Positions 3,771 through 23,044 of a stretch of 23,044 nucleotides of DNA are shown piece by piece. Under the pieces are notes generated by a model, which saw only the letters and a list, made by a program, of their open reading frames with translations, ran no database searches and had not been told where the DNA came from. The stretch is taken from the IMG/VR virus record IMGVR_UViG_2778261246_000008. One strand, given 5' to 3'. A program made the translations under genes and the position numbers. The stretch is from a virus. Taxonomy: Duplodnaviria; Heunggongvirae; Uroviricota; Caudoviricetes. Numbering within the stretch: the first letter of the stretch is position 1; each line of letters starts with the position of its first letter.

Positions 3771-6593
3771 ATGACGGCAGAGTACATCAGGGACTGGCAA
3801 CAACCGCGCCACGCAGTGGGGCGTGAAGGAACGGGGATCCCCGCTCCTGAATCCGCGCTTTCCTCCTGGCTGGATGCCTACCGGGTAGAGAACGAGCGCC
3901 GCCAGGAAATGGCTGATGCGGCCTTCTCCGCCACGCCACTGGGCAACCTGATTAATAAAAGCCTGGACGCACAGGAAAAACAGGACAAAACCATCACACT
4001 GGCAGGAGACGCCAGAAAACAGGCACGCGGCGCGGTGGATGAAGCCATGGCCTCGCTGCGCCTGCTGCCGTCCTATCTGCGCGATCCGCTTATTCGCCAC
4101 CTCTCCTTCCTGCGCAAAAAACAGGAAGCCGATCGCCGGAAAGGCAAAAAGAGCTGGCAGGCGGAACGCTATGCACGCGGAACCCTGCGCAAAATATTCG
4201 AACGTCTGGATCGCACTGACGGACACTGGCTGACACCGGGTTATCGCTCCCTTGCCGGACGCGAACGCCTGGACGATTTGCTTTACCTGCCGCAGCTCAA
4301 CAAACACCAGATACAGACGCTGGCCACCATGACGGCGGCGATGTTCAGCAGCACCTTCGAAAAACTCTGCGATGGCTTTGGCGCGACCGATGGCGAACTG
4401 ACCATGGATGTAACGCTGAAGGCGTATCAGATGCTGGCCCGCATGGCGTTACACCTGCACATCATGCCTCCACATTATGACGCACTGACAACAGATAAAG
4501 ACCGGAGGAACGAACCGGACACGGAGCTGCTGCCGGGCGCAATCCTTCGCCTGACCTGTGCGGAATGGTGGAAACGCAAACTGTGGCTGTTACGTTGCGA
4601 GTGGAGAGAAGAACAACTCCGCGCCGCCTGTCTGGTTTCCAGAAAAACATCACCCTATCTGAGCCAGGACGCGTTAAGCGAGTTTCGCGCACAGCGCGAG
4701 AAAACACGCGATTTCCTGAAAAGTTTCATGCTGGAAAACGAAGACGGGTTCACGATTGATCTCGAGACAGTGTATTACGCGGGAGTAAGTAACCCGGTTC
4801 ACCGTAAGGCAGAAATGATGGCCACCATGAAGGGGCTGGAACTTCTGGCCGAAGCCCGTGGCGACAAAGCGGTGTTTCTGACTGTCACCTGCCCGTCAAA
4901 ATACCACGCCACAACAGAGAACGGTCATCCGAATCCCAAATGGAACGGGGCCACCATGCGCGACTCCAGCGATTACCTAGTTAACACGTTTTTTGCAGCG
5001 GTCCGCAAGAAACTGAACCGCGACGGCCTGCGCTGGTATGGCATCCGCACGGTGGAGCCTCACCATGACGGCACCGTGCACTGGCATATGATGGTCTTTG
5101 CTCATCCGGAAGAAATCGACACCATTGTGTCCCACACCCGCGATATTGCCATTCAGGAAGATCGTCACGAGCTGGGTGATGATATTACCCCACGCTTTAA
5201 GGCGGAGTACGTCGACGGCTCAAAAGGCACGCCAACCAGCTACATCGCCACCTACATCGGAAAGAACCTGGACAGCCGCGCCGTGGATGGCATCGACCCG
5301 AAAACGGGCAAGCCACGCGTTGACCACGAAACAGGTAAATCAATGGCCGAGAGCGTGGAGCGCGCCATCGGCTGGGCGCGCCTTCACCGGGTCCGCCAGT
5401 TCCAGTTCTTTGGCATCCCCTCCCGTCAGGTGTGGCGTGAACTCCGCCGCCTTGCCAGCCAGATGGCACGCAACCCGGAAGGCCCGCAACGGCTGAAGGA
5501 TGACGCAATGGATGCGGTACTCGCTGCCGCTGATGCCGGATGTTTTGCCACCTACATTGAAAAACAGGGTGGCGTACTTGTTCCGCGCAAGGACTACCTG
5601 ATTCGCACAGCCTACGACCTCGCAGATGAGCTGAACGATTACGGCGAACAGAGTGTACAGATTTACGGGATCTGGTCGCCATTCATCGGGGAATCCTCCC
5701 GTGTGTGCACGCATCCGGATAACTGGAAGCTGGTAAGACGTAAACCGGAAGCGGAAGACAGCGCCCGCGAAAATGGTTTTGACCTTCAGGGCGGCCCTGC
5801 CGCCCCTTGGACTCGTGGCAATAACTGTCCCCGTGTACAGGAAACGGACAACAACGGGACAGAACAGCCGGAAGAACGGCCAGCACCGTGGCCGCAGCTC
5901 CCTGATGGCGTTGAAGTGAACGAATGGATGCGCTCACTGAAACGACACGAACGCCGGGCGCTGATGCGTTCGCTTCGTGACAAACAGGCAAAAAACAGCA
6001 GCGATGAAATGCAGAGCTGGACACAGAGCCGCAAACAGCCACGGCCTTTGCCTGATAACCACGAATTACTCGCTAAAGAATGGCGGGAGTCTGCTGAATC
6101 TCTCGGCCTGCATATCGGTGAACAACAGATGCAGCACCTGTTACGGGGCGGCAGTCTGTACGTTGACGGCAGCATCATTGCACCGCAGGGATTTGAAATT
6201 GTACGCAAACCGGATACCCGCCCGGACAGCCGAATCACGCAGCTCTGGCAGCGCCTGAGCCGTAATCATGGCGTAAGCAGCACGGAGATCCGCCATAACC
6301 CGGTCGCCAGCTATCTGGCACAGCTGGGGGCATCAGACCCTGAAGCCGCCGCACGCCTGGCATCCACACTTCAGCAGGACCAGAACACCATGAAAACACC
6401 CGTTACCGTGCTTTCTGACATGCTGCGCGCCATCCGCGACGCAGAGCACGCACAGAGAATCAGTGAAACCACTGAACGCGCCAGCCGCAAAGCAGACCTG
6501 CTGCGGGGTGGCATGACCAGTGGAAACAAAAAACAGACAGAAACGGGATTCACAAATCCCATAAATGAGCAAAAAACGTGCCGCGATATATGA
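3771..6593 (+). CDS. A: Rolling-circle replication initiator / endonuclease, P2 gpA family
   Basis: 940-aa ORF with the HUH metal-binding motif (TVHWHMMVF) and the paired catalytic tyrosines (TSYIATYIGKN) typical of P2 A-type initiators. Position after the early small genes matches P2. Confidence 0.9.
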   Translation: MTAEYIRDWQQPRHAVGREGTGIPAPESALSSWLDAYRVENERRQEMADAAFSATPLGNLINKSLDAQEKQDKTITLAGDARKQARGAVDEAMASLRLLPSYLRDPLIRHLSFLRKKQEADRRKGKKSWQAERYARGTLRKIFERLDRTDGHWLTPGYRSLAGRERLDDLLYLPQLNKHQIQTLATMTAAMFSSTFEKLCDGFGATDGELTMDVTLKAYQMLARMALHLHIMPPHYDALTTDKDRRNEPDTELLPGAILRLTCAEWWKRKLWLLRCEWREEQLRAACLVSRKTSPYLSQDALSEFRAQREKTRDFLKSFMLENEDGFTIDLETVYYAGVSNPVHRKAEMMATMKGLELLAEARGDKAVFLTVTCPSKYHATTENGHPNPKWNGATMRDSSDYLVNTFFAAVRKKLNRDGLRWYGIRTVEPHHDGTVHWHMMVFAHPEEIDTIVSHTRDIAIQEDRHELGDDITPRFKAEYVDGSKGTPTSYIATYIGKNLDSRAVDGIDPKTGKPRVDHETGKSMAESVERAIGWARLHRVRQFQFFGIPSRQVWRELRRLASQMARNPEGPQRLKDDAMDAVLAAADAGCFATYIEKQGGVLVPRKDYLIRTAYDLADELNDYGEQSVQIYGIWSPFIGESSRVCTHPDNWKLVRRKPEAEDSARENGFDLQGGPAAPWTRGNNCPRVQETDNNGTEQPEERPAPWPQLPDGVEVNEWMRSLKRHERRALMRSLRDKQAKNSSDEMQSWTQSRKQPRPLPDNHELLAKEWRESAESLGLHIGEQQMQHLLRGGSLYVDGSIIAPQGFEIVRKPDTRPDSRITQLWQRLSRNHGVSSTEIRHNPVASYLAQLGASDPEAAARLASTLQQDQNTMKTPVTVLSDMLRAIRDAEHAQRISETTERASRKADLLRGGMTSGNKKQTETGFTNPINEQKTCRDI

Positions 6594-6632
6594 AGCGCGC
6601 ACAAAACAGGCAAAAGCGGGATTTAAAAATCC
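6534..6632. repeat. Two copies of a ~27-bp direct repeat, each with a palindromic core (GGGATT-N4-AATCCC and GGATTT-AA-AAATCC)
   Basis: ACAGACAGAAACGGGATTCACAAATCC (6534-6560) and ACAGGCAAAAGCGGGATTTAAAAATCC (6606-6632), about 22/27 identical, spanning the 3' end of A and the A-parM intergenic region. Confidence 0.5.
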
Positions 6633-6669
6633 TGTAAACGATTAATTAATCAACATAAGGAAAAGCGAC

Positions 6670-7629
6670 ATGAAAATTTGTATCGACGACGGCTCCACCA
6701 ACATCAAGCTGGCATGGACTGAGAACGGCGAACGCCGCAACGCCATCAGCCCGAACAGCTTCAAGTCGGAATGGTCTGCGCCGTTCGGTGGCTCGCAGCC
6801 CGCGAACTACATGCTTGATGGCGTGCGCTATGGTTTTGATCCGGTCAGCGATCGCTTTGTCCAGACGACCGACACGCAATACCAGTACAGCGATGTGAAT
6901 GTCATTGCCATTCATCACGCGCTGGTCAAATCAGGCATCACGCCACAGGAGGTGGATGTGGTTGTCACCCTGCCATTGAGCGAGTATTTCGACACAAACG
7001 CACAGCCGGACATGGCCAACATCAGCCGCAAAAAAGCGAACGTTATGCGCCCGGTGGAGTACCAGAACGGCGAAACATTCACTATCCGTAACGTACGGGT
7101 TATGCCTGAATCCATTCCGGCTGGCTTTAAGGCACTGGCTGACATGAGTCCGTTTGAATCCCTGCTGATTGTGGATTTGGGCGGAACCACTCTGGATGTG
7201 GCAAAGGTTCAGGGGCAACTGGCAGGTATCAGCCAGGTGTTTTGCGATCCACACGTAGGCGTTTCTCTGATGGCCGATGCCGTACTGTCGGTGATGGCCA
7301 CTAACGGTATGCGCACCAGTCACCACATCGCCAATACCATTATCGAACATCGCCATAATGAAGCCTGGCTGCGCCAGCACATCCACAATGACGCGCATTA
7401 CGCCAGCCTGATGGCGATTATTCGTGAAAAGGAAGAAACACTGAAACAACGCGTGATCCGCGCGCTGGCGGGTTTTTCGGGTTACGGGCGGGTGATGGTT
7501 GTCGGTGGCGGGGCGGAGATTGTGGCACCCGCTATCCGCGAAGCCTGCGGAGTTAATGCGACTTTCATCGCGGACGGGGTGCCACAGTTTGCTCTGGTTA
7601 ATGGGCTGTACGCAATGGACAAGGAGTAA
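6670..7629 (+). CDS. parM: Actin-like ATPase of the ParM/StbA family
   Basis: The N-terminus MKICIDDGSTNIKL, plus SPNSFK, YSDVNVIAIHHAL, VMPESIPAG, LLIVDLGGTTLD and VVGGGAE, line up with the phosphate-1, connect and adenosine motifs of plasmid R1 ParM as recalled. AAGGA Shine-Dalgarno upstream. Confidence 0.85.
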   Translation: MKICIDDGSTNIKLAWTENGERRNAISPNSFKSEWSAPFGGSQPANYMLDGVRYGFDPVSDRFVQTTDTQYQYSDVNVIAIHHALVKSGITPQEVDVVVTLPLSEYFDTNAQPDMANISRKKANVMRPVEYQNGETFTIRNVRVMPESIPAGFKALADMSPFESLLIVDLGGTTLDVAKVQGQLAGISQVFCDPHVGVSLMADAVLSVMATNGMRTSHHIANTIIEHRHNEAWLRQHIHNDAHYASLMAIIREKEETLKQRVIRALAGFSGYGRVMVVGGGAEIVAPAIREACGVNATFIADGVPQFALVNGLYAMDKE

Positions 7630-7633
7630 ACCA

Positions 7634-7945
7634 ATGACGACACCAACCAGACGGATAAGTTTCTATCTGAAGCCCGCCGCCGTCAAGAACGAAGGTGAAG
7701 CATGCGCCTGGCTGGACAGCCTTACACCAGAAGCGCGCAAAAGCGGCCAACGCGTGGCTTTTCTGGCCGGGCTGGCACTTCTGAAAATGAATCCGGCAGA
7801 GGCTTACCGACTGGCTGCATGGGCTGATGATGAAGCGTTATCAGTGACACAAACCAGGACAGAACGCCCCGCGTCACAGCCAGTATCAACCGCACAGATA
7901 ACCAGTCAGATGGCTGGAAATATCCGGGCGTTATTTCCCGAATAA
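7634..7945 (+). CDS. parR: ParR/StbB-like adaptor, probable ribbon-helix-helix DNA-binding protein
   Basis: Immediately downstream of parM with an AAGGAG Shine-Dalgarno. RISFYLKPAAV...AFLAGLALL...IRALFPE parallels the R1 ParR pattern from memory. Size (103 aa) and position fit the family. Confidence 0.6.
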   Translation: MTTPTRRISFYLKPAAVKNEGEACAWLDSLTPEARKSGQRVAFLAGLALLKMNPAEAYRLAAWADDEALSVTQTRTERPASQPVSTAQITSQMAGNIRALFPE

Positions 7946-8008
7946 CACAACATCAGTGCGCATCCGCCCTGATGACTTTAACCCGGGAACATAAACAAGG
8001 GGGACACA

Positions 8009-8344
8009 ATGCAACGCATTGACAGAGAAAAAGCGCAGCGACTGATTGAGCGGATGGAAGCGCTGGCGAAAGAAGAAAATGTCAACATCCAAAAAATAGC
8101 TGAATGTGGCCAGATAGTTCTTCGTCGTGAAAAAGACCTCAAACAACTGATGTCTGGCGAAACCAGCAAAACATGGACTTCAGGTGAGGAGACGATTTAT
8201 TGCAGCTTCTGCAATAAATCCCAGTACGAAGTCACAAAGGTGATTGCCGGACCGTCTGTTTACATCTGCAATGAGTGCGTTGATTTGTGCAATGAAGTTA
8301 TCAGGAGAGAAGTGACAGACCATGAAGAAAAAACGCATGAATGA
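8009..8344 (+). CDS. Stand-alone ClpX zinc-binding-domain-like protein (C4 zinc ribbon) with an unrelated N-terminal helical extension
   Basis: The C-terminal segment [40 protein letters not shown] is near-colinear with the N-terminal zinc-binding domain of bacterial ClpX (CSFC...CxxC), but there is no AAA+ module. AGGGGGA Shine-Dalgarno. Confidence 0.8.
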
Positions 8345-8510
8345 CGAATTTGACGGCTTTTAATTTTATCGGGGCGCACTGTCGCCCTGCATGGAGAAAA
8401 ACAATAAAAAAGATGAATAACTGCTCATGTCAGACGCGCTGCGGGCAAGTCTGGCACCCTGCCCTGTCTCCGCAAAGGCTGTTGTCTTAACACGACAGAG
8501 TATGCCAGCA

Positions 8511-8918
8511 TTAAATATAATCTTCTTCGTAGTCGCTGATTAATTCATTGCCATAATCAGACAGCAATTTCAAAGCAAAGGTAACTTCCTCAAGGGTAGC
8601 TATCCCCATTGCTGAAAACACCGTTAATTTAACCAGCAGCAGGGAGTTTGAAAGTTCGGAAGAGTTCATCATTAAAAATATTGATGCAGCCTGAAAAGCT
8701 GTGCGTTTATTCCCATCATGAAAGGCATGAGCCTTGGCTATACCAATCAAATACATAGCAGCCAGAGCATGAATATCATCAACCCCTTCATAGTAGTGTA
8801 GTGTCCTGACGCGATTTAAAGCACCTTCAAGTAGCCCGTCATTGGCATTTCCGCTCTGGGGTAAAGTTTCAGCATGGATACGTTCTACTTGTTCTTTTGA
8901 CAAAAACACTATGTCCAT
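8511..8918 (-). CDS. doc: Doc-family toxin (Fic/Doc fold)
   Basis: Contains the Fic/Doc motif HAFHDGNKRTA. Its start overlaps the stop of the upstream antitoxin gene as ATGA on the minus strand. AT-rich relative to the phage backbone. Confidence 0.85.
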   Translation of the reverse strand: MDIVFLSKEQVERIHAETLPQSGNANDGLLEGALNRVRTLHYYEGVDDIHALAAMYLIGIAKAHAFHDGNKRTAFQAASIFLMMNSSELSNSLLLVKLTVFSAMGIATLEEVTFALKLLSDYGNELISDYEEDYI

Positions 8919-9274
8919 CAGTTATCCTCAAGCTTTTTAATGATATCCGCATGTTTTTCTCTTGTACGCTTCATTGCATCTTCAAAAGACAATCCTTTTT
9001 TTCTCTGTGCGACAAGAGCTGGATGACGTTTTTCCAGATCTCTCACTGCATTTATTAAGAGTGGTTGCTTCATTTTGTTTATTTGATCCCGCAGTTTTTT
9101 GGTTTTGCCAAGGACAGCCCGTATTTCAGGACTAAGATCAGAACCAGCAAGAACAACATCCTTCCCTCCCTGCGCCGTGATAACGACACTGCCACCGGAA
9201 GAAAGGTAATCCAGAATTTCACTCAGGTTCTCACGAAATTCATCATCAGTTACAGTTTTCATATTCATTTCCAT
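8918..9274 (-). CDS. phd: Phd/YefM-family antitoxin
   Basis: Small acidic protein immediately upstream of doc and translationally coupled to it. The N-terminus (KTVTDDEFRENLSEILDYL) fits the Phd/YefM pattern. The true start may be one of the internal ATGs (MEMNMK). Confidence 0.7.
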   Translation of the reverse strand: MEMNMKTVTDDEFRENLSEILDYLSSGGSVVITAQGGKDVVLAGSDLSPEIRAVLGKTKKLRDQINKMKQPLLINAVRDLEKRHPALVAQRKKGLSFEDAMKRTREKHADIIKKLEDN

Positions 9275-9348
9275 TATGCACGCCCATAACGTAAGTATAA
9301 CGGCTTGTTGGGCAGTAATAACACCGCCATATTTTCATTTTATACACC

Positions 9349-9374
9349 GCACAATAGTGCACAAATTTGCACAA
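9349..9374. repeat. Three GCACAA hexamers phased at 10 bp (9349, 9359, 9369), with a fourth at 9441
   Basis: Read directly in the sequence: ccGCACAAtagtGCACAAatttGCACAAttttt. One-helical-turn phasing suggests a protein-binding array, either a phd-doc operator or a terminase/cos accessory site. Confidence 0.4.
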
Positions 9375-9417
9375 TTTTTTTGAACAACTTTTTACCCTTC
9401 CGGCCCGCGTGGCGACT

Positions 9418-9520
9418 GGATCCGTCAAGGATCCGTGCGTGCACAAAAAAACGCGTTTTTTCTGCGCGCAGGTGACGGGGGAACAGCCCGCGTTTCAGGG
9501 GGTAAATAGCATCCCCTGAA
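9418..9520. other. Probable cos (cohesive end) region of the prophage
   Basis: Non-coding stretch between the cargo island and the portal gene Q, where cos lies in P2-like phages. GGTGACGGGGGAACAGCCC (9471-9489) matches the P2 19-nt cohesive end as I recall it (GGCGAGGCGGGGAAAGCAC) at about 13/19 positions. Flanked by a GGATCCGT direct repeat (9418-9425, 9429-9436), the perfect palindrome AAAAAACGCGTTTTTT (9446-9461) and the inverted repeat CAGGGG-N11-CCCCTG (9496-9518). Confidence 0.4.
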
Positions 9521-9748
9521 CGATGTCGCAGCGACACAACAGAATGGCTGTATTTCTCACGCTGAGCATGAAAAAGACGTGAGGACTTTTGATTTGATGG
9601 GGTAGCAGATAAGGCCGTCAAAATCGCACTGAGGCGGCGAGAACATGCAGTCAGCGCAGTGGGATTGCGTAAGAGCCTGACCGTCGATGATGGCGATAAG
9701 CTGGAAGACGTCGTGAAATTATCTGATTGATACAGGAGTTGGAGAGTC

Positions 9749-9771
9749 GGGGCATAAATTTTTTATGCCCC
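9749..9771. other. Perfect 10-bp-stem palindrome GGGGCATAAA-ttt-TTTATGCCCC just downstream of the Q stop
   Basis: Read directly. There is no flanking U-tract on either strand, so it is not a canonical intrinsic terminator; it could be a bidirectional terminator variant or a protein-binding site. Confidence 0.3.
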
Positions 9772-9798
9772 GGCGAAGCAGCAGACAAGCGAAGCGCG

Positions 9799-10845
9799 TC
9801 AGGATGTGGGCTGGGTGTCCAGCAGTGCGTAAGGGTTAAATCGGATCACCTCTTCGCCAAGCCAGTCATTGATATGCTTCATGGCCTCCATGACGGGCAT
9901 CAGCTCGTTAATTGCGTAAACCCGCGCGGCCTTCTCCACATCACCAAACGCACTTTTTTCGCCCGGCATCGCCCCCATCAGTTGCGGCGGAACGCGGTGC
10001 GCAGCCAGCACATCATCACGGGATGCCGCCTTAACATTCATGAACTCATCCTTTGCGGTGATCTGCTGGAACGGCAAAATTTGCACCCCCTCTTTGCCAC
10101 CGTTGGGGGCATGAATGAGCACGTTTTTAAACGCACCACCACCACGTGCACCCTGTAGCGTTTCTTTCAGGGAGTCCATGCTTTCGCGGTTTACCTGCGC
10201 TGCACCGATGTAGATGATGCACCCGGCGTGGGATCCGTTGTCGTAATACAGTTTTCTGAACATGTCCGCCGAATGAGACAGGCTGGCCGAGAGTAATGCG
10301 CCAAGATATTCCGGCATGCCGTAGATTTCCTGGTTAATGTCAGGATTCATCAGGTGGCACACTTTACCAGGGCGAAACTGAAACGCATCCTTGCCATCCT
10401 GCACATACCACCATGATTCAAGATCGCTTCCGCGTCGCATGTATTTCGCCAGGGCGTGCCGTAATTTAAGCGGTTCGCCGAGCATATTGCTTCGAAGCTC
10501 AAGGAATGCGTTACCGAACACAAACCAGTCCAGCGCCAGCGCCGAGAAATCCTGCCGGGAAAGCAGCGGGTGCGGAATATAGCAGCCGAGCAATACATTG
10601 CGCTTAAAGTAAAGCGCAGACTGATGCCAGGACGTTTGCCGGGCAGCTCTTGCCAGACCGTACCAGTCTACCGGGGTTTCATACCACCGCCCGTTATCAG
10701 CACAGTACATATTGTCCAGCAAATCATGCCCGGTCAGGCGATAAGGACCATCAAAAGTGAATGCACTGAGCGACGATTCTTTCCTGAGTGCATCAGCGAG
10801 ATCAATGCGTGAACTCATGCGCACTTTTTTATTTTTTCTGCTCAT
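9799..10845 (-). CDS. Q: Portal protein (P2 gpQ family)
   Basis: 348-aa ORF adjacent to the putative cos and directly downstream of the large terminase gene, with a 1-nt ATGA overlap. Order and size match P2 Q. Confidence 0.88.
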   Translation of the reverse strand: MSRKNKKVRMSSRIDLADALRKESSLSAFTFDGPYRLTGHDLLDNMYCADNGRWYETPVDWYGLARAARQTSWHQSALYFKRNVLLGCYIPHPLLSRQDFSALALDWFVFGNAFLELRSNMLGEPLKLRHALAKYMRRGSDLESWWYVQDGKDAFQFRPGKVCHLMNPDINQEIYGMPEYLGALLSASLSHSADMFRKLYYDNGSHAGCIIYIGAAQVNRESMDSLKETLQGARGGGAFKNVLIHAPNGGKEGVQILPFQQITAKDEFMNVKAASRDDVLAAHRVPPQLMGAMPGEKSAFGDVEKAARVYAINELMPVMEAMKHINDWLGEEVIRFNPYALLDTQPTS

Positions 10846-12596
10846 CAGAACTCCATAACCGTGAAACGCTCGTTTTCTCCTTCGCCGCCAATTGGTTCGT
10901 TAATGACAGCAAGCATGGTTGCCCACGCAAGGTCGCCGTGGCTGATCCCCCTCGCGCGGTCCGTTTCGTAAGTGATAAAGCCGCCCGGTGTTTTCACCTT
11001 ACGCACGGCGTTAAAGGCCGCGACCAGCTCGCGTTCGGCGCGATCGTATTCCCACCGCCCGGCACGCATTATTTGCAGCATTTTCAGTACCAGCGACCGT
11101 TTTGATGACAGCGTGAAGGTGTACGGAATAGCGGCAGGGAAAAACCGTTTCACTATCTGATAAACAGCCTCCCCGTTCCCGCCCGTCACATCAATGCCGA
11201 TGTGTTCCACGTTGTAGCGATACGTGAAATCTTCAATGACTCTGGCCTGTTCTTCAAACTCCAGCCCCTGAACGCGTCGCGTCTCCACCGTTCGAAAACG
11301 GCCACCAGGAACAGCCGGAGGAACCACCACGGACACAGCGCCGCTGTCGCCGTTGCCACTGCTGCCGTTTGCGTCATACCCAATCCATACCGGACGATTC
11401 CCCATCGGGCGGGGAGCAAAAGGTTTCCAGTCTTTCCAGTCGTCGTATCCGTCAACACCGCAGCCAATCAGGATATTCAGGTTAAATGCCGATTCCCCTT
11501 CGCGGACAAACTCACACATATAGAGATTGAGGAACTCGTCTTCGGTGTATTCATCACGAATTTCGTCGATATCGGTGTGTTTCCAGCCGTGATTAACCAC
11601 ATCTTCCAGCGTGACAATTTGCCGCCACATCCGGTCAGGGCAGATAAGCCCGTTATGCAGCGTTTTCCAGTCCACAGAAAAACGCTGGCGTTTATGCGTG
11701 GCCTTTTTCTCGTTCCAGCGGTCGCCGTTCCAGTAGGCGTATGCTTCGTGCGTTTCGGTGGATGGCGTGGAGAAGTAGGTGCGCCGCAGTCCGCTGAGGG
11801 TTGCCATAGCGCCAGCCACCTTGCGCAGTTCAGCAAAGCGACTGACCCAGAAAAATTCATCAAAATAAAAATTGCCCGTATAGGACTGCGCCGACGCAGC
11901 AGAAGTGCCGAGAAAATGCAGCTCTGCGCCGTTGGAGAGGATGATTTTATCGCCCCCTTTCAGCTCCACATCAACTTCAGCCGCAGCCTTCTGAATAATG
12001 CTTTTAAACTGGAACGCCTGACGACGCGACGCAGACAAAAAAATCTGGTTACGCTGGTAAGGTTGCGCCACATCGTCACGCAGCGCCATCAGCAGTGCTT
12101 CCTGTGCAAAATACCAGGTCGCCCCAATCTGTCGGGATTTCAGGATCATCCTGTTACGTATCCCGGCTTCCCTGCAAAGGGTCAGGGAGTCAAACCAGCC
12201 CCGCTGATGCCACTCCAGCCTGCTGATGATTTTTTCCCGCAGTGCGGCAATCTGTTCCGGCGTGAAATGATTTTTGAGTTTTTTCGCCCGGCCTTTCTTC
12301 CCTGTGGCCGTCGCATCCGGCTGGCCATCATGCAGTTTTTTAAGCTGCCGGGTCAGCAGGTCTATTTCCTTGAAGTCACCACCTGTTTTATTCTGTTTTT
12401 CAGTGAGCTGGATGAGGCGCGCATCGATGGACTGCGTGACACGCTGCACGGGTGGCGTTTCATCCCACTGGTCGCGTTTTTTCCACGCATAAATCGTGTT
12501 CGGGTTTATTCCCATCAGACGTGATATTTCTGCGGGCGGATAACCCTGCCAGTAAAGTTGTCGCGCACGCTGGCGCACAAAAGCGTCCTGAATCAT
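10845..12596 (-). CDS. P: Terminase large (ATPase) subunit (P2 gpP family)
   Basis: 583-aa ORF divergent from the O-N-M capsid operon, with a GGGGGAG Shine-Dalgarno. Position and size match P2 P. Confidence 0.9.
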   Translation of the reverse strand: MIQDAFVRQRARQLYWQGYPPAEISRLMGINPNTIYAWKKRDQWDETPPVQRVTQSIDARLIQLTEKQNKTGGDFKEIDLLTRQLKKLHDGQPDATATGKKGRAKKLKNHFTPEQIAALREKIISRLEWHQRGWFDSLTLCREAGIRNRMILKSRQIGATWYFAQEALLMALRDDVAQPYQRNQIFLSASRRQAFQFKSIIQKAAAEVDVELKGGDKIILSNGAELHFLGTSAASAQSYTGNFYFDEFFWVSRFAELRKVAGAMATLSGLRRTYFSTPSTETHEAYAYWNGDRWNEKKATHKRQRFSVDWKTLHNGLICPDRMWRQIVTLEDVVNHGWKHTDIDEIRDEYTEDEFLNLYMCEFVREGESAFNLNILIGCGVDGYDDWKDWKPFAPRPMGNRPVWIGYDANGSSGNGDSGAVSVVVPPAVPGGRFRTVETRRVQGLEFEEQARVIEDFTYRYNVEHIGIDVTGGNGEAVYQIVKRFFPAAIPYTFTLSSKRSLVLKMLQIMRAGRWEYDRAERELVAAFNAVRKVKTPGGFITYETDRARGISHGDLAWATMLAVINEPIGGEGENERFTVMEF

Positions 12597-12750
12597 TGCT
12601 CCCCCTGAGTAATTACAGGAAGATTACCCGCGCGCGAAACTGTTCTCCTTAACCCCCTGTTCTGGCCGTTTTCTTACAACAAAAGCCCTTTGTATCAGCC
12701 TGTTACGCTTTGCCATCATGACTGAAGAACCAGTCAGAGGGGCAAAAACT
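12597..12750. promoter_or_regulatory. Divergent late promoter region (P2 P/O-type), presumably activator-dependent
   Basis: 154-bp intergenic region between divergent late operons. It contains the partial dyad cTGT-N15-ACAa (12658-12678). No exact TGT-N12-ACA Ogr-type site was found. Confidence 0.45.
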
Positions 12751-13587
12751 ATGGCTAATGAAAAAAAGACATCCCGCAAAAAGTTTCGCGTGGCTGTCTC
12801 CGGATCAACTGTTGATGGCCGCGAAATCAGCCCGGTACATCTGCGTGAAGCCGCCGAGAACTTCAACCCGGATGTTTACGCTGCCCGCGTGAACGTTGAG
12901 CACTATCTCTCGCCATGCCCGTCAAGCGAATTTTCCGCAATGGGCGATGTCACCGCACTGAGTACGGAAGACATTACGGAAGGTCCGCTGGCCGGACGTA
13001 CTGCGCTGTATGCAGAAATCGAACCGACCGAGCGCATGAAGCAGCTTGTCGCGGACGGCAAGAAAATCTATTCCAGTATCGAACTGCACCCGCAGTTCTC
13101 CGTTAACGGGCGCGCCTATCTGGTCGGGCTGGCGATGACCGACACCCCGGCAAGCCTGGGCACTGAGCGCCTGAAATTCACGGCACAGCAACGTCAGGCG
13201 GTGATGACGTTCAACAGTGTCCAGGGTGAAGCACCGCTCATTTCCGAAGCCATCGAGTCTGAAATCATCGAAATGGCAGAACAACGCCAGGAAGAAGGCA
13301 CCCAGTGGTTTAACCGCGTTATGGGGATTATTGGCCGTGGCCGCAAAGCGGATGACGCCAGTTTCTCCCGTATTCAGGAAGCGGTGGAAGGCGTCGCAAC
13401 GTCACAGGCCGACATTATCGACCGTTTTAATGTGCTGGAAACCCGCCATCAGCAGGACCGCCAGAAAATCACGTCACTGACCACAGAGCTGACAGCACTG
13501 AAGGAAAAACTGCGCACGCAGGACGGCGATCCGCAGAACCGCTTCACCGCAACGGGCGCAGCCTCCGACCAGCTGGCTGACTTCTGA
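12751..13587 (+). CDS. O: Capsid scaffolding protein (P2 gpO family)
   Basis: Start MANEKKTSRKKFRVAVSGSTVDGREIS with a GAGGGG Shine-Dalgarno. FRV..G.T.DGR.IS and YLVGLAMTDTPASLGTE correspond to P2 O as recalled. Confidence 0.88.
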   Translation: MANEKKTSRKKFRVAVSGSTVDGREISPVHLREAAENFNPDVYAARVNVEHYLSPCPSSEFSAMGDVTALSTEDITEGPLAGRTALYAEIEPTERMKQLVADGKKIYSSIELHPQFSVNGRAYLVGLAMTDTPASLGTERLKFTAQQRQAVMTFNSVQGEAPLISEAIESEIIEMAEQRQEEGTQWFNRVMGIIGRGRKADDASFSRIQEAVEGVATSQADIIDRFNVLETRHQQDRQKITSLTTELTALKEKLRTQDGDPQNRFTATGAASDQLADF

Positions 13588-13609: not shown

Positions 13610-14662
13610 ATGAATCTGGTGATGTCAGATATTACCCGCAACAAGCTGGGTTGCTATATGGCGCAGCAGGCGTCGCTTAACAATATCCCGGTATCTGCAC
13701 TGGTATCGCGATTTACCGTGGAACCCTCGGTGCAGCAGCGTTTTGAAAACGCAGTAAAGGAGAGCACTGAATTTACAAAAAAAATTAACGTGTTCGGTGT
13801 GACTGACCAGAAAGGCGAAAAAATCCTCCTGGACACCACCGGGCCGATTGCGCGCACGAATACCAGTTATGACGGCACAAAACGCCGTAACCCGAATAAC
13901 GTGGTTGATCTGAAAAACCGCAAATACCAGTGCGAACAGGTGAACTACGACACGTTTATTTCGTATCCGCAGCTTGATGCCTGGGCGGCACACCCTGATT
14001 TTCAGTCCCGCGTCAGCACACAGATTGCCCGGCAGGTGGCGCTTGACCGCATCATGATCGGTTTCAACGGCACGTCTCACGCAGATGAGTCCAACTTCAG
14101 CACTAACAAGCTGCTTCAGGACGTTAACGTGGGATGGCTGGAGCACATCAGAACCGACGCCAGCGAGCGCGTTATGAATGATGTAACGCTGACCTCCCGC
14201 AACATGGACAACACCGTGGCGCACGCGGGTAAATATGCGAACGCTGATGCACTGGTACAAGACGCGCGCTCATCCCTGCTGGATGAATGGCACAAGGAAG
14301 CTGACGACCTCGTGGTGATTATGGGGCGCAACCTGTTTAACTCGCTGCGTCTGCCCGTGCTGAACAGCATCAGCGGCCAGAATCCCAATGCGGAATTACT
14401 TGCCGGACAGCTCATCCTGTCATCGCGCGCCATTGGCGGGCTGGATGTATTCCTTGCGCCGTTCTTCCCGGATGCAACGATGCTGATCACCTCGTTCAAC
14501 AACCTGTCAATTTACTGGCAGAAAGGAACAATGCGTCGCCTGATGAAAGACGAGCCGGAATACAACCGCATCGCCACCTACCAGTCCATCAATGACGCTT
14601 ATGTCGTTGAAGACTATGGCAAGTGCGCGATGGTCACTGGCCTGAAGTTCGCCGACAGCTAA
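13610..14662 (+). CDS. N: Major capsid protein (P2 gpN family)
   Basis: 350-aa ORF with an AAGGAG Shine-Dalgarno. FTVEPSV, GWL, LVVIMGRNL, LITSFNNLSIY and YVVEDYG correspond to P2 N as recalled. Confidence 0.9.
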   Translation: MNLVMSDITRNKLGCYMAQQASLNNIPVSALVSRFTVEPSVQQRFENAVKESTEFTKKINVFGVTDQKGEKILLDTTGPIARTNTSYDGTKRRNPNNVVDLKNRKYQCEQVNYDTFISYPQLDAWAAHPDFQSRVSTQIARQVALDRIMIGFNGTSHADESNFSTNKLLQDVNVGWLEHIRTDASERVMNDVTLTSRNMDNTVAHAGKYANADALVQDARSSLLDEWHKEADDLVVIMGRNLFNSLRLPVLNSISGQNPNAELLAGQLILSSRAIGGLDVFLAPFFPDATMLITSFNNLSIYWQKGTMRRLMKDEPEYNRIATYQSINDAYVVEDYGKCAMVTGLKFADS

Positions 14663-14690: not shown

Positions 14691-14707
14691 TGTAACGGAG
14701 AGAAAAA

Positions 14708-15508
14708 ATGATTACTCCTGCACAGCAACACTGGCAGAACGTGATGGCACAGCGCGCAGGCCGGGCGAATGAAGGCGTGGACCACGCCGCGCGTACCGCG
14801 CATGAAGAGGTGCTGTATCGTCTGCGTCTGGTACAGGCCCGGCTTAAGGGCGTACAGGCCAGAAGCGCGAAAGCCGCCATCAAAAAAGAGTTATTGCCGG
14901 ACTTTTCCGGCTGGATTGAGGGAACGCTGGAGGCTGACGGCGGGCAGCAGGATGAAGTGATTGCCACGCTGATGGTCTGGGCGATTGACTGCGGCGATCT
15001 TCCGCTGGCGCTGCGTATTGGCGCATATGTGGTCCGTCACAACCTCATCATGCCGGATAACTTTGGACGTACTGCTGCCACGGTACTGACCGAAGAAATC
15101 TGTAATCCGGTACTGACGCAGGCCGGGACGGATGCCGACGCGGATTTGTCCGCCTTTATCGAACCACTGGACACCCTCCGGGAGATTGTCACCGACCAGG
15201 ACATGCCGGACGAAGTGCGCGCCAAATTATGCAAAGCGTGCGCCTTTGCCCGCCGTGGCCTGAGTGATGCGGACAGCATGGCCCTGTCACTGAAGCTGCT
15301 GCGCGAAGCAATGCACCTGAACCCGAACGCAGGTGTGAAACGCGAGATTGCAACCCTTTCCCGCGCCCTGAAAAAAGCCGATTCCGCAGCCGCACCAGAA
15401 GACGCCAGCGCACAGCAGACGCAGGACGAAAGCAGCAAAAGTAAAAAGACAACGCGGAAGCCTGCAACACGAAAAACCACCGCGACGCAGAAGGCGAAGC
15501 GCGGTTAA
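14708..15508 (+). CDS. M: Terminase small / endonuclease subunit (P2 gpM family)
   Basis: 266-aa ORF following N, with a GGAGAG Shine-Dalgarno and a basic Lys/Thr-rich C-terminal tail. Order matches P2. Confidence 0.82.
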   Translation: MITPAQQHWQNVMAQRAGRANEGVDHAARTAHEEVLYRLRLVQARLKGVQARSAKAAIKKELLPDFSGWIEGTLEADGGQQDEVIATLMVWAIDCGDLPLALRIGAYVVRHNLIMPDNFGRTAATVLTEEICNPVLTQAGTDADADLSAFIEPLDTLREIVTDQDMPDEVRAKLCKACAFARRGLSDADSMALSLKLLREAMHLNPNAGVKREIATLSRALKKADSAAAPEDASAQQTQDESSKSKKTTRKPATRKTTATQKAKRG

Positions 15509-15523
15509 CGACTGACCCCGTCA

Positions 15524-15596
15524 GCGGGCGGCGTGCGCGGTGTTCCGGTTTGACTCCGTGACCGTTTACACCGCGCACCCACCGCCCGATTTTTTT
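15524..15596 (+). terminator. Compound GC-rich stem-loop followed by a T7 run (probable intrinsic terminator or attenuator after M)
   Basis: GCGGGCGGcGTGCGCGGTG (15524-15542) pairs with CACCGCGCACccaCCGCCCG (15569-15588) around a 26-nt loop, followed by A and TTTTTTT (15590-15596). Confidence 0.55.
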
Positions 15597-15610
15597 CAGG
15601 AGTGAACCCC

Positions 15611-16105
15611 ATGAGTATGGTTGCCAGAACTGAACCCGGACCCGCAGAGGACGACATCACCGATACCGATGATGGCGATACCCGCATTTCAGCGGGTGCA
15701 TTCTGGCCGGATATTGTGCTGCGCGAGCTGCGTCTGGCGGTACGACTGCCGGGCCGCGTGACCACCTCCCGCCTGCTGCATACTGCCACCGGGGCTGTGG
15801 CACACGTTACCCGCGAGCTGGAAGCATGGCAGCAGGAACAGCAGGCAGCTGGCCATCAGACGCTGGCCGATGTTCCGGCACCCGTAATTAACGGAGAAAG
15901 CGTCAATCTCTGGCACTGGCGCAATGCTGTTTATACCGCCACGCGCGCCCTGATTCTGGAGCGTTATCGTGATGCAGACACAACGGACAAGGGCGACCGC
16001 CGGGCGGACGCACTGGATATACAGACATCGGATTTGTGGCGCGATGTGAGCTGGGCCATCTCTGACATTCTGTGCCGCCCGCGAATCTTTGCGGAATTGT
16101 GCTGA
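15611..16105 (+). CDS. L: Head completion/stabilisation protein (P2 gpL family)
   Basis: ATG at 15611 with an AGGAG Shine-Dalgarno. Position after M and size (164 aa) match P2 L. Confidence 0.8.
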   Translation: MSMVARTEPGPAEDDITDTDDGDTRISAGAFWPDIVLRELRLAVRLPGRVTTSRLLHTATGAVAHVTRELEAWQQEQQAAGHQTLADVPAPVINGESVNLWHWRNAVYTATRALILERYRDADTTDKGDRRADALDIQTSDLWRDVSWAISDILCRPRIFAELC

Positions 16106-16305
16106 TGAAAGTGAAGGCACTGGAAGGCGACACCGTGGATTCGCTCTGTTTCCGGTACTACGGCACGACGCAGGGCGTCACCGAAAAGGTGCTGGATGCC
16201 AACCCCGGACTCTGTCAGCAGGTATTTCTGGACGCCGGGCAGGAAGTGGAGATGCCGGAGCCGGAGAAGAAGAAACGAGAAATGATTCAGTTGTGGGGGG
16301 AGTAG
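16105..16305 (+). CDS. X: Tail protein X (LysM-like, P2 gpX family)
   Basis: 66-aa MKVKALEGDTVDSLCFRYYGTTQGVTEKVLDANPGL...LW resembles P2 X as recalled. ATGA overlap with L. Confidence 0.85.
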   Translation: MKVKALEGDTVDSLCFRYYGTTQGVTEKVLDANPGLCQQVFLDAGQEVEMPEPEKKKREMIQLWGE

Positions 16306-16307
16306 CA

Positions 16308-16631
16308 GTGAGCACCATTCAAACAGGGATCACAGAGCAGGTTATTGCGTGGCTCTTTGACCACCTGCCAACGGTGTATGCAGCAGGCGCGGCGGTCAGC
16401 ATTTCCGCGCTGATGAGTCTTTATGACGGACGAACACTGGTTCAGACCGTAACGGGATCGCTGGCGTGCGGCGTTCTTGCCATGGCCGTGGCCGGGTCGT
16501 TGCGCTTCTTCGGGTTTCCTGAAGATGCCGTGACGTTTATCGGCGCATCAATCGGTTTTATGGGGGCAGAGAAAGCACGCGACAAGGTTATTGCGGCCTT
16601 TAATCGCAGGGTGAAGGAGAAGGACGAATGA
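16308..16631 (+). CDS. Holin (P2 Y position)
   Basis: GTG start with a GGGGGGAG Shine-Dalgarno. The small protein has hydrophobic segments (AAGAAVSISALM, LACGVLAMAVAG) and a charged C-terminus, and lies directly upstream of the endolysin. Confidence 0.7.
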   Translation: MSTIQTGITEQVIAWLFDHLPTVYAAGAAVSISALMSLYDGRTLVQTVTGSLACGVLAMAVAGSLRFFGFPEDAVTFIGASIGFMGAEKARDKVIAAFNRRVKEKDE

Positions 16632-17424: not shown

Positions 17425-17575
17425 TACTCCCACATGGGGAAATCTCGGTATATGGGGCGACCGCCTTCTGGATGCACTGGAAACCTGTAACGCGGATAAA
17501 CGGGCCATTGAATTACTGGAACAGCGCAGGCTGCAACGACTGAACAACGAGGATAACAACCATGCTGAAAACTGA
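17255..17575 (+). CDS. lysC: o-spanin lipoprotein (Rz1 / LysC-like), out of frame and overlapping lysB
   Basis: GTG at 17255 with a GGAGAGG Shine-Dalgarno. Lipobox LLTGC followed by a proline-rich region. The start lies inside lysB in a different frame and the gene extends past the lysB stop, as in P2 lysB/lysC. Confidence 0.7.
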   Translation: MNSYATILQKMNAPTLCLTLVLLTGCAGTQNAPRTAPSVRLIPQTLTIPVTPPPFPDTPTWGNLGIWGDRLLDALETCNADKRAIELLEQRRLQRLNNEDNNHAEN

Positions 17576-18029: not shown

Positions 18030-18657
18030 GGCATTCACCCGCGTGGATGAAACCTTTGAGGCCATCCGCGACAGCCTGAATCAGCAGGCCATCAATAACA
18101 TCGCCAGAAAGCTGGCACAGGATTTACGCCGCGCCCAGCAGGCGCGTATCCGGTCACAGAAAGCGCCGGACGGGACCGCGTGGACACCACGCAGACGCCG
18201 CGTAACCCGGATACAGGAACGCATTCGCTTTATCTGGAATAACGAAGCACGCACGCTGAAAAACTGGCATCACGACACGGGGAAATACGGGCGAACCATT
18301 ACCGGGTGGGATGAGGATAAAAACAATATCCGCACGTTTTACCGGGATGACATCGACCGTTTTCTGGAAATACGCACCCGGCGCATCAACCAGGACAGCA
18401 CAAAGCGCGTCCCCATGTTCGTAAAACTGCGCACCGCCCGCTACCTGAAAGCCCGTGCAGATGCATCCGGTGTGACGGTGGGTTACAGCGGCGTGGCCGC
18501 ACGTATTGCACGCGTTCATCAGTTAGGTGAGCGCGATCAGGTTGCGCCGGGCATTTTCACCGATTACCCGGTACGTGAGCTGCTGGGTATCAGCCAGGCA
18601 GATGAGCGCCTGATTTATAACACGGTGCTGGGCCGGATTGCGGAGGCTGTACGGTGA
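18013..18657 (+). CDS. S: Tail completion / virion morphogenesis protein (P2 gpS family)
   Basis: ORF following R and overlapping its 3' end. The start is ambiguous between GTG 18013 and ATG 18022. Confidence 0.78.
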   Translation: MKAMDKAFTRVDETFEAIRDSLNQQAINNIARKLAQDLRRAQQARIRSQKAPDGTAWTPRRRRVTRIQERIRFIWNNEARTLKNWHHDTGKYGRTITGWDEDKNNIRTFYRDDIDRFLEIRTRRINQDSTKRVPMFVKLRTARYLKARADASGVTVGYSGVAARIARVHQLGERDQVAPGIFTDYPVRELLGISQADERLIYNTVLGRIAEAVR

Positions 18658-21007: not shown

Positions 21008-23044
21008 ATGAGTACCACAACACGAAAATTTAAAACCGTTATCACCGATACGGGTGCCAAAAAATTAGCTCAGGCAGCCGCGCCAGATGGTAATCCTGTC
21101 CGCCTGACTCACATGGCCGTGGGCGACGGTGGCGGCACGTTGCCCACACCAGACAGTAAGCAGACCCGTCTGGTGCATGAGGTGTGGCGACATACTGTTA
21201 ATCGCGTCATCCTGGACGCAACACATCAGAACCGCATTATTGCGGAGCTGGTTATTCCTCCTGAAACGGGCGGATTCTGGATCCGGGAAATTGGTGTATT
21301 TGATGAGCACGGCGATTTAATCGCGGTGGGCAATACTGCCGAAAGTTACAAGCCAGCCGTTGCCGAAGGATCCGGACGTGCACAAACATTTCGCACCATT
21401 CTGACCGTATCCAGCACTGCCACCGTGGCGCTTACCGTGGATAACACCATGGTTATGGCCACAGTGGATTACGTGAATGACAAACTGAAAGAACATGAAC
21501 AGTCACGACGTCACCCGGACGCCTCGCTGACCGCAAAAGGCTTTGTTCAACTCAGTAGCGCCACCAACAGCACGTCTGAAGCACTGGCCGCAACGCCGAA
21601 AGCGGTCAAGGCAGCCTATGACCTTGCTAACGGGAAATATACCGCACAGGACGCCACCACAGCGCGAAAAGGTCTTGTCCAGCTCAGTAGCGCCACCAAC
21701 AGTGATTCTGAAACGCTTGCGGCAACGCCAAAGGCGGTAAAGGCAGCATATGACCTCGCTAACGGGAAATATACCGCACAGGATGCCACCACAGCGCGAA
21801 AAGGTCTTGTCCAGCTCAGTAGCGCCACAAACAGCGATTCTGAAACGCTTGCGGCAACGCCAAAGGCGGTAAAGGCCGCGTATGACCTTGCTAACGGGAA
21901 ATACACTGCACAGGATGCCACTACAGCGCGAAAAGGTCTTGTCCAGCTCAGTAGCGCCACCAACAGTGATTCTGAAACGCTGGCCGCAACATCAAAAGCG
22001 GTGAAGTCTGCCTATGACAATGCTGAAAAACGTCTTCAGAAAGATCAGAACGGTGCGGATATTCCGGGAAAGGATACCTTCACGAAAAATATCGGTGCCT
22101 GTCGTGCTTATAGCGGCGCTTTGAGCACTGAAGCCGGAAACTGGACAACCGCTCAGTTTATTGAATGGCTGGATTCCCGTGGTGCATTTAATCATCCGTA
22201 CTGGATGTGCAAAGGCTCATGGTCATATGCAAATAACAAAATCATTACGGATACCGGATGTGGTGATATCCACCTGGCTGGTTGTGTCGTCGAGGTCATG
22301 GGAACTAAATCTGCAATCACTATCCGAGTGACCACGCCGACAACATCAAGTGGTGGCGGTACAACCAGCGCGCAATTCACTTACATTAATCATGGGGACG
22401 GCTACTCCCCCGGCTGGCGTCGTGACTGGAATCGTCAGGGCGACTCAATGACCGGAACGATTAATCAGGATGGCGGAAGCCAGAATGCCTATATGTCTAC
22501 GGCCTTATGTTCAGGCACCAGAGGCGGCAAAAAATATCTCAGAAAGTTTCGTGGTGGAGAAGGAGACACTATCTGGCATGAAACAGTACAGGGCGGGGTA
22601 ATTCGCTGGGCGACAGGAAACTATGACGCTCAGGAAGAATTATCACTCAGCTCCGCTTATGGTCTCCGTTCAAGAGGTGAGATTACATCACTCAGTGCTA
22701 ATGGTCTGCGCATTGCTTATGGCAATTATGGATTCTTTATCAGGAATGATGGCGGCAGCACATATTTAATGCTGACGGCCTCTGGCGATAAATTTGGGAC
22801 ATGGAACGGCTTAAGACCGCTGACTATCAATAACGCCAATGGCGGAGTGTCAATGGGGCATGGCCTGAGTGTTACAGGTGATATTGTCTGTTCTTGCCCC
22901 CTTATTTCCAGACAGGGGTTGTATCTTAAGTTAACATTACCCGCTGACGTCGATATTCTCGCGGAGAGCGATAACCCAACGCACTATGCGGATGGTTTTC
23001 ATTGTAATGCTCGATCGCCACTGCAAGGTTATGCAATGCCGTTC
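21008..23044 (+). CDS. H: Tail fibre protein (P2 gpH family), 3' end beyond the window
   Basis: Hand translation from ATG 21008 is open through to the window end (679 codons). The N-terminus [21 protein letters not shown]...MAVGDGGG...HEVWRH...[17 protein letters not shown] is the conserved P2 H virion-attachment domain. Absent from the ORF track because no stop falls inside the window. Confidence 0.88.
21536..22030 (+). repeat. Tandem array of ~3.7 copies of a 132-bp (44-aa) unit inside H
   Basis: The unit [44 protein letters not shown] starts at 21536, 21668, 21800 and 21932 (period exactly 132 bp), with synonymous and near-synonymous differences between copies. It also produces the repeat-containing antisense ORF 21616..21963. 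Confidence 0.85.

Follow-up and report, generated by a model that had tools for sequence, protein, structure and literature searches.

A single-copy, covarying hairpin element between genes M and L of P2-like phages and its possible role as a leaky attenuator

We analyzed the junction between the small terminase gene (M) and the head-completion gene (L) in a 23,044-nucleotide stretch of phage DNA (IMG/VR record IMGVR_UViG_2778261246_000008; from here on, the window) and found that it contains the P88-lineage copy of a structured element that is family-wide among P2-like phages, is present as a single copy, and covaries in its paired positions. The window was assigned to a P88-like phage (genus Xuanwuvirus, family Peduoviridae); its bases 14700-16110 are 95-99% identical to those of phage P88 and 15 other phage records, and its P2-type head module was confirmed with Pfam. 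The original prediction had described a GC-rich interrupted stem followed by T7 between M and L. Both the hairpin, which is on the coding strand, and the gene context were found as described: genes Q and P are on the minus strand, genes O, N, M, and L are on the plus strand, M ends at 15508, and L starts at 15611. The reading that we favor, and which we hold to be about evenly balanced between right and wrong on the sequence data at hand, is that the element serves as a leaky attenuator that would also leave a protective 3' hairpin on the O-N-M message, favoring scaffold, capsid, and terminase.

In the window, the M-L spacer extends from 15509 to 15610, and the 64-nt GC-rich compound hairpin within it (15525-15588) reads CGGGCGG-C-GTGCGCGGTGT ... 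ACACCGCGCAC-CCA-CCGCCCG and is followed by A15589 and by a run of seven T residues (T7, 15590-15596), which ends 14 nt from the start codon of L (Table 1). The predicted start of the structure, 15524, turned out to be the last base of a separate mini-hairpin (P1), and the long stem begins at 15525, whereas the predicted end, 15596, coincides with the end of the T-run. When positions 15505-15615 were folded with RNAfold, the free energy was -50.6 kcal/mol compared with -32.1 +/- 3.1 kcal/mol for 200 dinucleotide shuffles (z = -5.9), none of which (0/200) folded as well, and both arms of the long stem were also recovered by an inverted-repeat finder. The minimum-energy fold of the element is identical to its centroid fold, with no competing helix predicted by RNAfold; the sole alternative pairing that could be seen by eye, of 3-4 bp, would join the P1-loop CCC to the GGG in the lower stem. 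Further, among the 84 runs of at least five T residues on both strands of the window, the T7 described here has the most stable adjoining upstream hairpin, with a folding energy of -42.2 kcal/mol and an end 1 nt ahead of the run (the runner-up has -29.2 kcal/mol). The reverse strand of the hairpin has a comparable fold but lacks a T-run after it. We note that a simple terminator scan missed the site for the only reason that the apical part is longer than the 8-nt loop limit of the scan.

It had been suggested that the hairpin might mark an operon boundary specific to this phage. This suggestion did not survive comparison with relatives, because a homologous hairpin is present in P2 and in nearly all P2-like phages examined. 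The 99-nt M-L spacer of P2 contains the same fold, with a lower stem of GGGCGG/CCGCCC and the same internal loop of C versus CCA; it differs in the sequence of the upper stem and in having only T4 after the hairpin. The M-L junctions of 16 further named phages were obtained, and 13 junctions, counting those of the window and P2, were compared in detail. The same architecture was seen in 12 of the 13, including those of SEN5, Aeromonas phage LPM4, two Klebsiella phages, 186, PSP3, Pseudomonas phage Sirocco, Mannheimia phage 535AP1, a Yersinia phage, and Burkholderia phage FLC10, and the M-L spacer measured 92-111 nt in each named phage with this architecture. The exception was a Zymomonas element, in which M overlaps L and the hairpin is absent.

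IMG/VR was scanned with the bare pattern GGGCGGC-N30-60-CCACCGCCC, which yielded 120 loci. Of these matches, 57 were located between M and L homologues, and 54 of the 57 had at least 6 consecutive bp of upper stem flush with the internal loop. The other 63 matches lay elsewhere, had upper stems of 0-4 bp, and were regarded as chance matches in GC-rich DNA. Counts of presence and absence were based on a covariance model, built from 34 diverse M-L elements, because a detector based on regular expressions missed many true copies (its non-greedy match ends at the first downstream YCA). The loci to which the model was applied were chosen by the presence of a gpM relative, almost all of them by protein alone; the relatives were retrieved through alignments of M, and the alignment of the L protein had no sufficiently conserved stretch. 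The first set contained 73 loci (16 from named phages and 57 non-identical loci out of 79 from the first gpM alignment), and exactly one model match, on the coding strand and directly after M, was present in 71 of them; one of the two misses was a record truncated there, and the other was the Zymomonas element. In a second set of 80 loci, which was biased toward distant lineages and searched with default filters, the model matched 57, and most of the remaining 23 were low-GC Pasteurellaceae-like copies that showed the same architecture on folding (CGGGG-C-...-CCA/TCA-CCCCG), some with insertions. With one genome per species (GTDB) and filters off, the third set revealed the element after M in 74 of 80 bacterial species from the beta- and gamma-proteobacteria, with genera including Mannheimia, Haemophilus, Pasteurella, Chromobacterium, Burkholderia, Paraburkholderia, Cupriavidus, Pseudomonas, Dyella, Lysobacter, Pectobacterium, Pantoea, Rahnella, Sodalis, Plesiomonas, and others.

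Several individual junctions depart from this pattern or extend it. The M-L spacer of phage HP1 has been lost (16588-16595), and HP1 is without the element because its M and L overlap. Vibrio phage K139 has a 106-nt M-L spacer (18285-18390) with a diverged hairpin, which gave no match to the covariance model, and the family-typical tail CACCTATTTAGAGAG. In one IMG/VR contig (IMGVR_UViG_3300035312_000209, 2169-2500), an open reading frame (ORF) of ~75 amino acids encoding a TraR/DksA-type zinc finger is inserted between the element and L, and this ORF starts at the distance from the hairpin that L normally uses. In five low-GC IMG/VR contigs (L218, L246, L289, L292, and L293; ~2151-2480), the M stop codon is separated from the element by non-coding inserts of 190-350 nt; the inserts carry long inverted repeats, and the element still adjoins L. 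The insert of L218 has a copy of the same 28-nt sequence at each end, which suggests an insertion resembling a miniature inverted-repeat transposable element (MITE). Two records of metagenome-assembled genomes labeled Eremiobacteraeota and Chthonomonas (L341 and L364) contain a P2-like gpM with the element, and this occurrence is likely to reflect binning contamination by proteobacterial prophage DNA.

The element occurs once per phage region. The model matched once in the 23-kb window, where the next-best match scored 7.3 bits compared with 56.4 bits for the M-L site, and once in P2 bases 1-10000. A search for second copies with filters off in the window, P2 bases 1-10000, HP1, K139, and the satellite P4 found only copies at M-L; the best match in P4 (11.7 bits), which runs antisense inside the alpha gene, was taken as noise. 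Further, 1057 of 5426 complete E. coli genomes carry the P88-type junction, which invariably lies between gpM and the head-completion gene and occurs at a median of one place per genome.

The stems of the element change in a coordinated manner in the alignments. In a sequence-only MAFFT alignment, 90.3% of the cells fell into standard pairs compared with 37-54% when the 3' partners were slid by 1-3 columns, and changes on both sides were seen in 14 of 17 pairs; the covariation score was 0.51 compared with 0.04-0.10 for the slid partners, and none of 500 shuffles reached the observed values. RNAalifold, when given no structure, recovered both the lower and the upper stem, with compensatory changes in 15 of the 17 predicted pairs. 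A model-fitted alignment of 58 distinct sequences was 96.8% paired, with the caveat that this alignment was fitted to the model. The GGCGG/CCGCC core of the lower stem is nearly invariant, and its outermost pair covaries (GC 19, AU 11, CG 2, and UA 2). The upper stem has at least 11 different sequences across phages, with pairing kept in all, and the apical region varies in both length and sequence. A functionless structure, that is, a chance or neutral palindrome or a mobile repeat of the MITE type or of the repetitive extragenic palindrome (REP) type, is effectively refuted. GC-rich genomes do give many bare lower-stem matches, as the 63 of 120 outside M-L illustrate, but these have no upper stem to speak of, and the M-L element is single-copy, confined to one locus and one strand, conserved in hosts from 41% to 70% G+C, and changed in a compensatory manner in 14-15 of 17 pairs. 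Nor does it have the many dispersed copies of REP elements, bacterial interspersed mosaic elements, or MITEs, the model matches being confined to single copies in the window and in P2 bases 1-10000, with none found in P4.

The alignments also indicate which strand folds. G.U-type cells outnumber A.C-type cells by 47 to 15, which points to the sense strand, most simply as mRNA. Covariation alone cannot separate RNA from single-stranded DNA of the same strand, and G.T is the least destabilizing DNA mismatch, so we considered a single-stranded DNA hairpin or cruciform that would act in rolling-circle replication or packaging as a priming or protein-binding site. We regard this as very unlikely: the asymmetry of the internal loop (C versus CCA) rules out a site for a symmetric dimer, the excess of G.U over A.C fits a transcribed sense strand, the element is precisely placed between stop codon and ribosome-binding site in all lineages, the P2 origin lies within gene A, and P2 cos is at the genome ends, ~5.9 kb from the M-L spacer (P2 record).

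The nucleotides that do not pair are conserved. On its 5' side, the internal loop has the unpaired C in 120 of 121 detected elements, and the 3' side reads CCA in 107 and TCA in 13 of the 121; in the 58 distinct sequences, the C and A columns of this (C/U)CA are invariant (58/58), and the C residues of the P1 loop are C in 57. In the fitted alignment and on inspection, the P1 stem covaries among lineages (GCGC/GCGC, GCTC/GAGC, CTGAC/GTCAG, and GCAC/GTGC); P1 was absent from the de novo RNAalifold prediction and is less secure than the long hairpin. The spacing is also constrained: the lower stem starts 15-26 nt from the M stop codon in most measured spacers, the first CCC is at most 14 nt from that codon in ~80% of them (most commonly 9-10 nt), and 13-25 nt (mode, 21 nt) separate the end of the hairpin from the start codon that follows. 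We also observed that GATC, a Dam methylation site, recurs in the hairpin apex of several unrelated lineages (L165-L202, L013, L017, and L214), e.g. GGTGATCTG and CCGATCTGCC, which may be a chance recurrence. The invariance of the unpaired nucleotides, for which a plain terminator or an exonuclease barrier would have no use, argues for specific recognition; the conserved core probably acts through a factor that could be an RNase, RNA polymerase, the ribosome, or a phage protein.

One candidate for such a factor is a processing enzyme. RNase III could cut in the internal loop, as it does at T7 R1.1-type sites, or RNase E in the U-rich linker, with any termination being incidental. The late mRNA would thereby be divided into two pieces, one (O-N-M) ending in a protective 3' hairpin and the other (L to the tail genes) having its 5' end unstructured and its ribosome-binding site open. 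The 18 bp of stem and the 5-bp apical stem, interrupted by a 1 x 3-nt internal loop, provide the approximately two helix turns and the asymmetric loop of an RNase III site (7 bp, 1 x 3 loop, 11 bp, and 5-bp apical stem), and this helix-loop-helix layout is kept in every lineage, those free of a U-tract included. The invariance of the internal loop suggests that a specific site is recognized, the linker sequence GAUUUU fits the cleavage preference of RNase E (RN|WUU), and both enzymes are conserved among the hosts of the element in the beta- and gamma-proteobacteria. However, processing leaves the C-rich P1 loop unexplained, and we know of no positive sequence requirement of RNase III that would fix a C versus CCA loop. 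Overall, we consider a processing site to be possible but rather unlikely.

In a further alternative, which we likewise view as doubtful, the invariant unpaired nucleotides would be presented on a rigid two-hairpin scaffold to a regulatory partner. This partner might be RNA polymerase, in which case the element would act in anti-pausing or antitermination, like the put RNA of phage HK022, past its own U-tract and later attenuators; it might be a ribosome that is held after M for restart on L; or it might be a protein of the ProQ/FinO type or a phage late protein that sets the translation of L. Consistent with such binding, the unpaired C, the (C/U)CA, and the C residues of the P1 loop stay constant as the stems covary, P1 is held so close behind the M stop codon that a terminating ribosome would cover it, and the distance between hairpin and start codon is equally tight and is adopted by the gene inserted after the element in the contig with the zinc-finger ORF. 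Further, read-through appears to be required despite the terminator-like tail (see below), and the put RNA of HK022 resembles the element in being a nascent RNA of ~70 nt with two stems, in which bulges are functional (PMC9378689). Against it, the element has no similarity at the level of sequence or model to any described element, no candidate binding protein was found, the P2 copy is, unlike put, ~2.8 kb from the promoter, and HP1 and the Zymomonas element manage without the structure, M and L overlapping there. In a broader form of the same idea, to which we attach only a low probability, the M-L element would represent an unrecognized family of functional phage RNAs in which the CCC loop of P1, the bulged C, and the (C/U)CA dock with the transcription or translation machinery. 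If so, it could be a put-like RNA that carries polymerase past its own U-tract and the later attenuators of a ~10-kb late transcript or, alternatively, a tether that hands ribosomes from the M stop to the L start; either would constitute a conserved control point between the head-precursor genes and the completion, lysis, and tail genes in all P2-like phages.

The sequence that follows the hairpin is far less uniform than the hairpin itself. The T-run is T6-T7 in P88-like phages and one sister group, T4-T5 in P2 (T4) and in some Klebsiella and Burkholderia phages, and T6-T8 in most Pasteurellaceae lineages, in which U6-8 tails recur independently; it is absent in 186 (whose tail type is AACCTGATG), PSP3, Aeromonas, Pseudomonas, Ralstonia, and Chromobacterium. 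The length of the run follows the G+C content of the locus. In the window phage, the attributes of an intrinsic terminator are present, namely a stable hairpin with a 7-bp GC base (-42 kcal/mol) 1 nt from the T-run and a U-tract directly downstream, and in one Mannheimia phage record, the upper part of that phage's copy is labeled a "rho-independent terminator (MFold)". With a U6-7 tract placed 1 nt after a 7-bp GC stem, some intrinsic termination by E. coli RNA polymerase is to be expected. Across the family, the U-tract is not kept in homologues, and because it is not conserved, termination would be a lineage-specific overlay on a conserved structure, and the core element would have a family-wide role that is independent of the U-tract.

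According to the P2 record, the genes O, N, M, L, X, Y, K, lysA, lysB, R, and S form one operon transcribed from the O promoter, in which a putative attenuator (8399-8417) and a terminator (9397-9433) are annotated and the M-L site is not. In P2, S and V belong to separate operons, each with its own promoter. In the window, the S-like ORF (end, 18657) and the V-like ORF (start, 18654) overlap by 4 nt (18654-18657), and because of this overlap a transcript that crosses the M-L hairpin in P88-like phages may continue into the baseplate genes. A scan with the sigma-70 consensus detected no promoter near 15400-15700 and no sigma-70-like motif downstream of M; the P2-type activator motif TGT-N12-ACA had four matches in the window, no more than expected by chance, all of them upstream of 10300 and none downstream of M; and a direct-repeat search of the window revealed no shared late-promoter box. 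A promoter for L was thus not found inside the M-L region, although, with the late-promoter consensus of the window phage being undefined, an internal one is not strictly excluded. Because no promoter motif follows M and S overlaps V, it appears that all genes from L and X through the lysis genes, R, and S to the baseplate genes need read-through, and termination at the hairpin is probably incomplete. The original prediction of a strong terminator or attenuator is sound as regards the sequence attributes of an intrinsic terminator, but the word strong is doubtful, as the downstream genes seem to need substantial read-through; that the hairpin lowers the expression of the genes downstream of M is plausible.

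Under the leaky-attenuator reading, the element would work as a cis-acting RNA in the late head-operon mRNA, located between the M stop codon, which it immediately follows, and the next start codon, ~20 nt further on. In the sense transcript, the mini-hairpin with its C-rich loop would be stacked against the long hairpin, and the U6-7 after the GC-rich base would cause E. coli RNA polymerase to stop part of the time. Transcripts from the O promoter would then either end at ~15596-15600 or read through; the ended (or processed) O-N-M mRNA would keep a very stable 3' hairpin and be shielded from 3' exonucleases; and messages for scaffold, capsid, and terminase would come to exceed those for L, X, lysis, and tail proteins. 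The data establish the fold, conservation, covariation, strand, single-copy status, and geometry of the element, whereas termination, its leakiness, and the consequences for mRNA stability and stoichiometry are inferred. Several considerations weigh against this reading. First, termination is something that we infer from the sequence, and the U-tract is missing from many lineages that keep the structure, as listed above. Second, because the length of the T-run tracks genome G+C, the run could be the product of compositional drift in a short linker before the ribosome-binding site and not a selected tail. Third, a terminator or exonuclease barrier leaves the invariant bulged C, the (C/U)CA, and the C-rich P1 loop, which are kept from 41% to 70% G+C, unexplained, and a 64-nt compound hairpin is atypical of intrinsic terminators. 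Finally, efficient termination would starve every essential downstream gene.

Table 1. Coordinates of the M-L element and of the surrounding head genes in the window
Feature	Position	Strand	Basis or remark
P1 mini-hairpin, 13 nt: CTGAC / CCC loop / GTCAG	15512-15524	plus	RNAfold; no linker to the long hairpin
Lower stem, 5' strand, CGGGCGG, 7 bp	15525-15531	plus	RNAfold pairing with 15582-15588
Unpaired C, 5' side of asymmetric internal loop	15532	plus	Invariant
Upper stem, 5' strand, GTGCGCGGTGT	15533-15543	plus	Pairs with 15568-15578, 11/11 complementary (RNAfold, inverted-repeat finder); sequence lineage-specific
Variable apical region, 24 nt, with 5-bp stem 15546-15550 / 15560-15564	15544-15567	plus	RNAfold
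Upper stem, 3' strand, ACACCGCGCAC	15568-15578	plus	RNAfold, inverted-repeat finder
CCA, 3' side of internal loop (TCA in some lineages)	15579-15581	plus	Invariant
Lower stem, 3' strand, CCGCCCG	15582-15588	plus	RNAfold, alignment
T7 run (U-tract), one A from the stem	15590-15596	plus	Lineage-specific; T6 or T7 in P88-like phages
Shine-Dalgarno sequence of L, AGGAG	15598-15602	plus	Ahead of ATG 15611-15613
Covariance-model match, full extent	15498-15601	plus	56.4 bits, E = 8e-14, filters off
M stop codon, TAA	15506-15508	plus	Opens the conserved block TAAC-GA(A/G)C that precedes the M-L element
Portal, Q	9799-10845	minus	Pfam
Large terminase, P	10845-12596	minus	Pfam
Scaffold, O	12718-13587	plus	Pfam
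Capsid, N	13610-14662	plus	Pfam
Small terminase, M	14708-15508	plus	PF05944 at 9e-37; same gene annotated in P88
Head-completion protein, L	15611-16105, ATG 15611-15613	plus	PF05926 at 2e-45; P88 annotation has equal length and end

Two further features of the window were noted outside the M-L region. A 137-nt gap between the lysB-like and R-like ORFs (17425-17561) corresponds in position to P2 lysC and its annotated putative attenuator region, and no hairpin or promoter motif was seen in this gap. Further downstream, a 132-nt unit is repeated in 3.7 tandem copies with 89% matches (21535-22018), and this repeat probably sits in a tail-fiber gene that runs off the end of the window.

We next asked whether the element belongs to a described class of RNA. 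At the gathering threshold, Rfam 15 had no match in the window or in 10 diverse loci, and at E values of up to 10 it returned only spurious microRNA and leader matches that were well below threshold. A pistol-type ribozyme was rejected, there being no matches to Rfam ribozymes. An RfaH ops site was rejected on inspection: the lower stem shares only GGCGG with GGCGGTAG, the required T and A are never present, and the element extends well beyond enterics. By inspection, a K-turn was dismissed, as no G.A pairs follow the 3-nt loop, and so was a tRNA-like acceptor end, as there is no consistent NCCA tail. A ribosome-controlled antiterminator is unsupported, given that only the 3-4-bp alternative pairing is available and that a ribosome on the M stop codon reaches P1 but not the long stem. 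In the searchable full-text literature, no description of the M-L element was found, although an earlier mention remains possible, and the element may be included in a 2023 catalogue of ~10,000 candidate viral RNAs (PMC10690425).

The element is thus a strongly covarying RNA at a fixed point of the late operon that matches no Rfam family and is unannotated in the curated P2 record, and it points to an unstudied layer of late-gene control. Both P2 and 186 are textbook phages, prophages of the P2 type abound, and the P88-type junction alone is present in about one in five complete E. coli genomes. Possible roles include setting the ratio of capsid to completion and tail proteins, setting the level of holin and thus the timing of lysis, and affecting the processivity of late transcription. 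As a ~90-nt cassette with clear disrupt-and-restore mutations, the element offers an easy experimental handle and could be used to tune expression in delivery vectors based on P2/P4. In genome annotation, the covariance model is a very specific marker of the M/L boundary of P2-like prophages, and a hairpin with U7 between M and L should not be taken as the end of an operon.

Finally, we compared the element with known systems. The lambda sib/tI site is a terminator hairpin that is extended in read-through RNA to form an RNase III site and so couples termination to mRNA decay; unlike the M-L element, sib is located at the 3' end of int and destroys the upstream mRNA, whereas the P2-family genes on both sides of M-L are needed late, and the resemblance is one of analogy only. 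The puf hairpins of Rhodobacter and the malE-malF REP elements are intercistronic mRNA stabilizers that set the stoichiometry of their operons, for which stability alone is needed. The M-L element is likewise a very stable intercistronic stem-loop downstream of the genes needed most (scaffold and capsid), but it has specific invariant unpaired nucleotides, and it is single-copy whereas REP elements are multi-copy. At T7 R1.1-type sites, cleavage by RNase III leaves a protective 3' hairpin on the upstream message; there too, two stems, upper and lower, flank an asymmetric internal loop between the genes of a polycistronic phage message, whereas the M-L loop is smaller (1 x 3 nt) and fixed in sequence and occurs in temperate phages of many hosts, the likeness being one of predicted folds. 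HK022 put is a cis-acting nascent phage RNA of ~70-85 nt, with two long stems and functional bulges, located just downstream of the early promoters (PMC9378689). The M-L element shares with it the two stems and the bulges of a cis-acting nascent RNA, and a role in passing terminators would suit the need for read-through; its hairpins are very unequal (13 and 64 nt), no sequence relation to put was found, and the P2 copy, instead of being close to a promoter, is found ~2.8 kb from the start site of the O operon. Compared with the intrinsic terminators and attenuators of phage late operons, such as those annotated in the P2 O operon, the M-L element differs in its 64-nt compound fold, in which the internal loop is invariant and to which a mini-hairpin is added, and in being kept family-wide, while its U-run is not conserved; like them, it combines a GC-rich hairpin with a U-run on the coding strand of a long morphogenetic operon whose downstream genes are needed.

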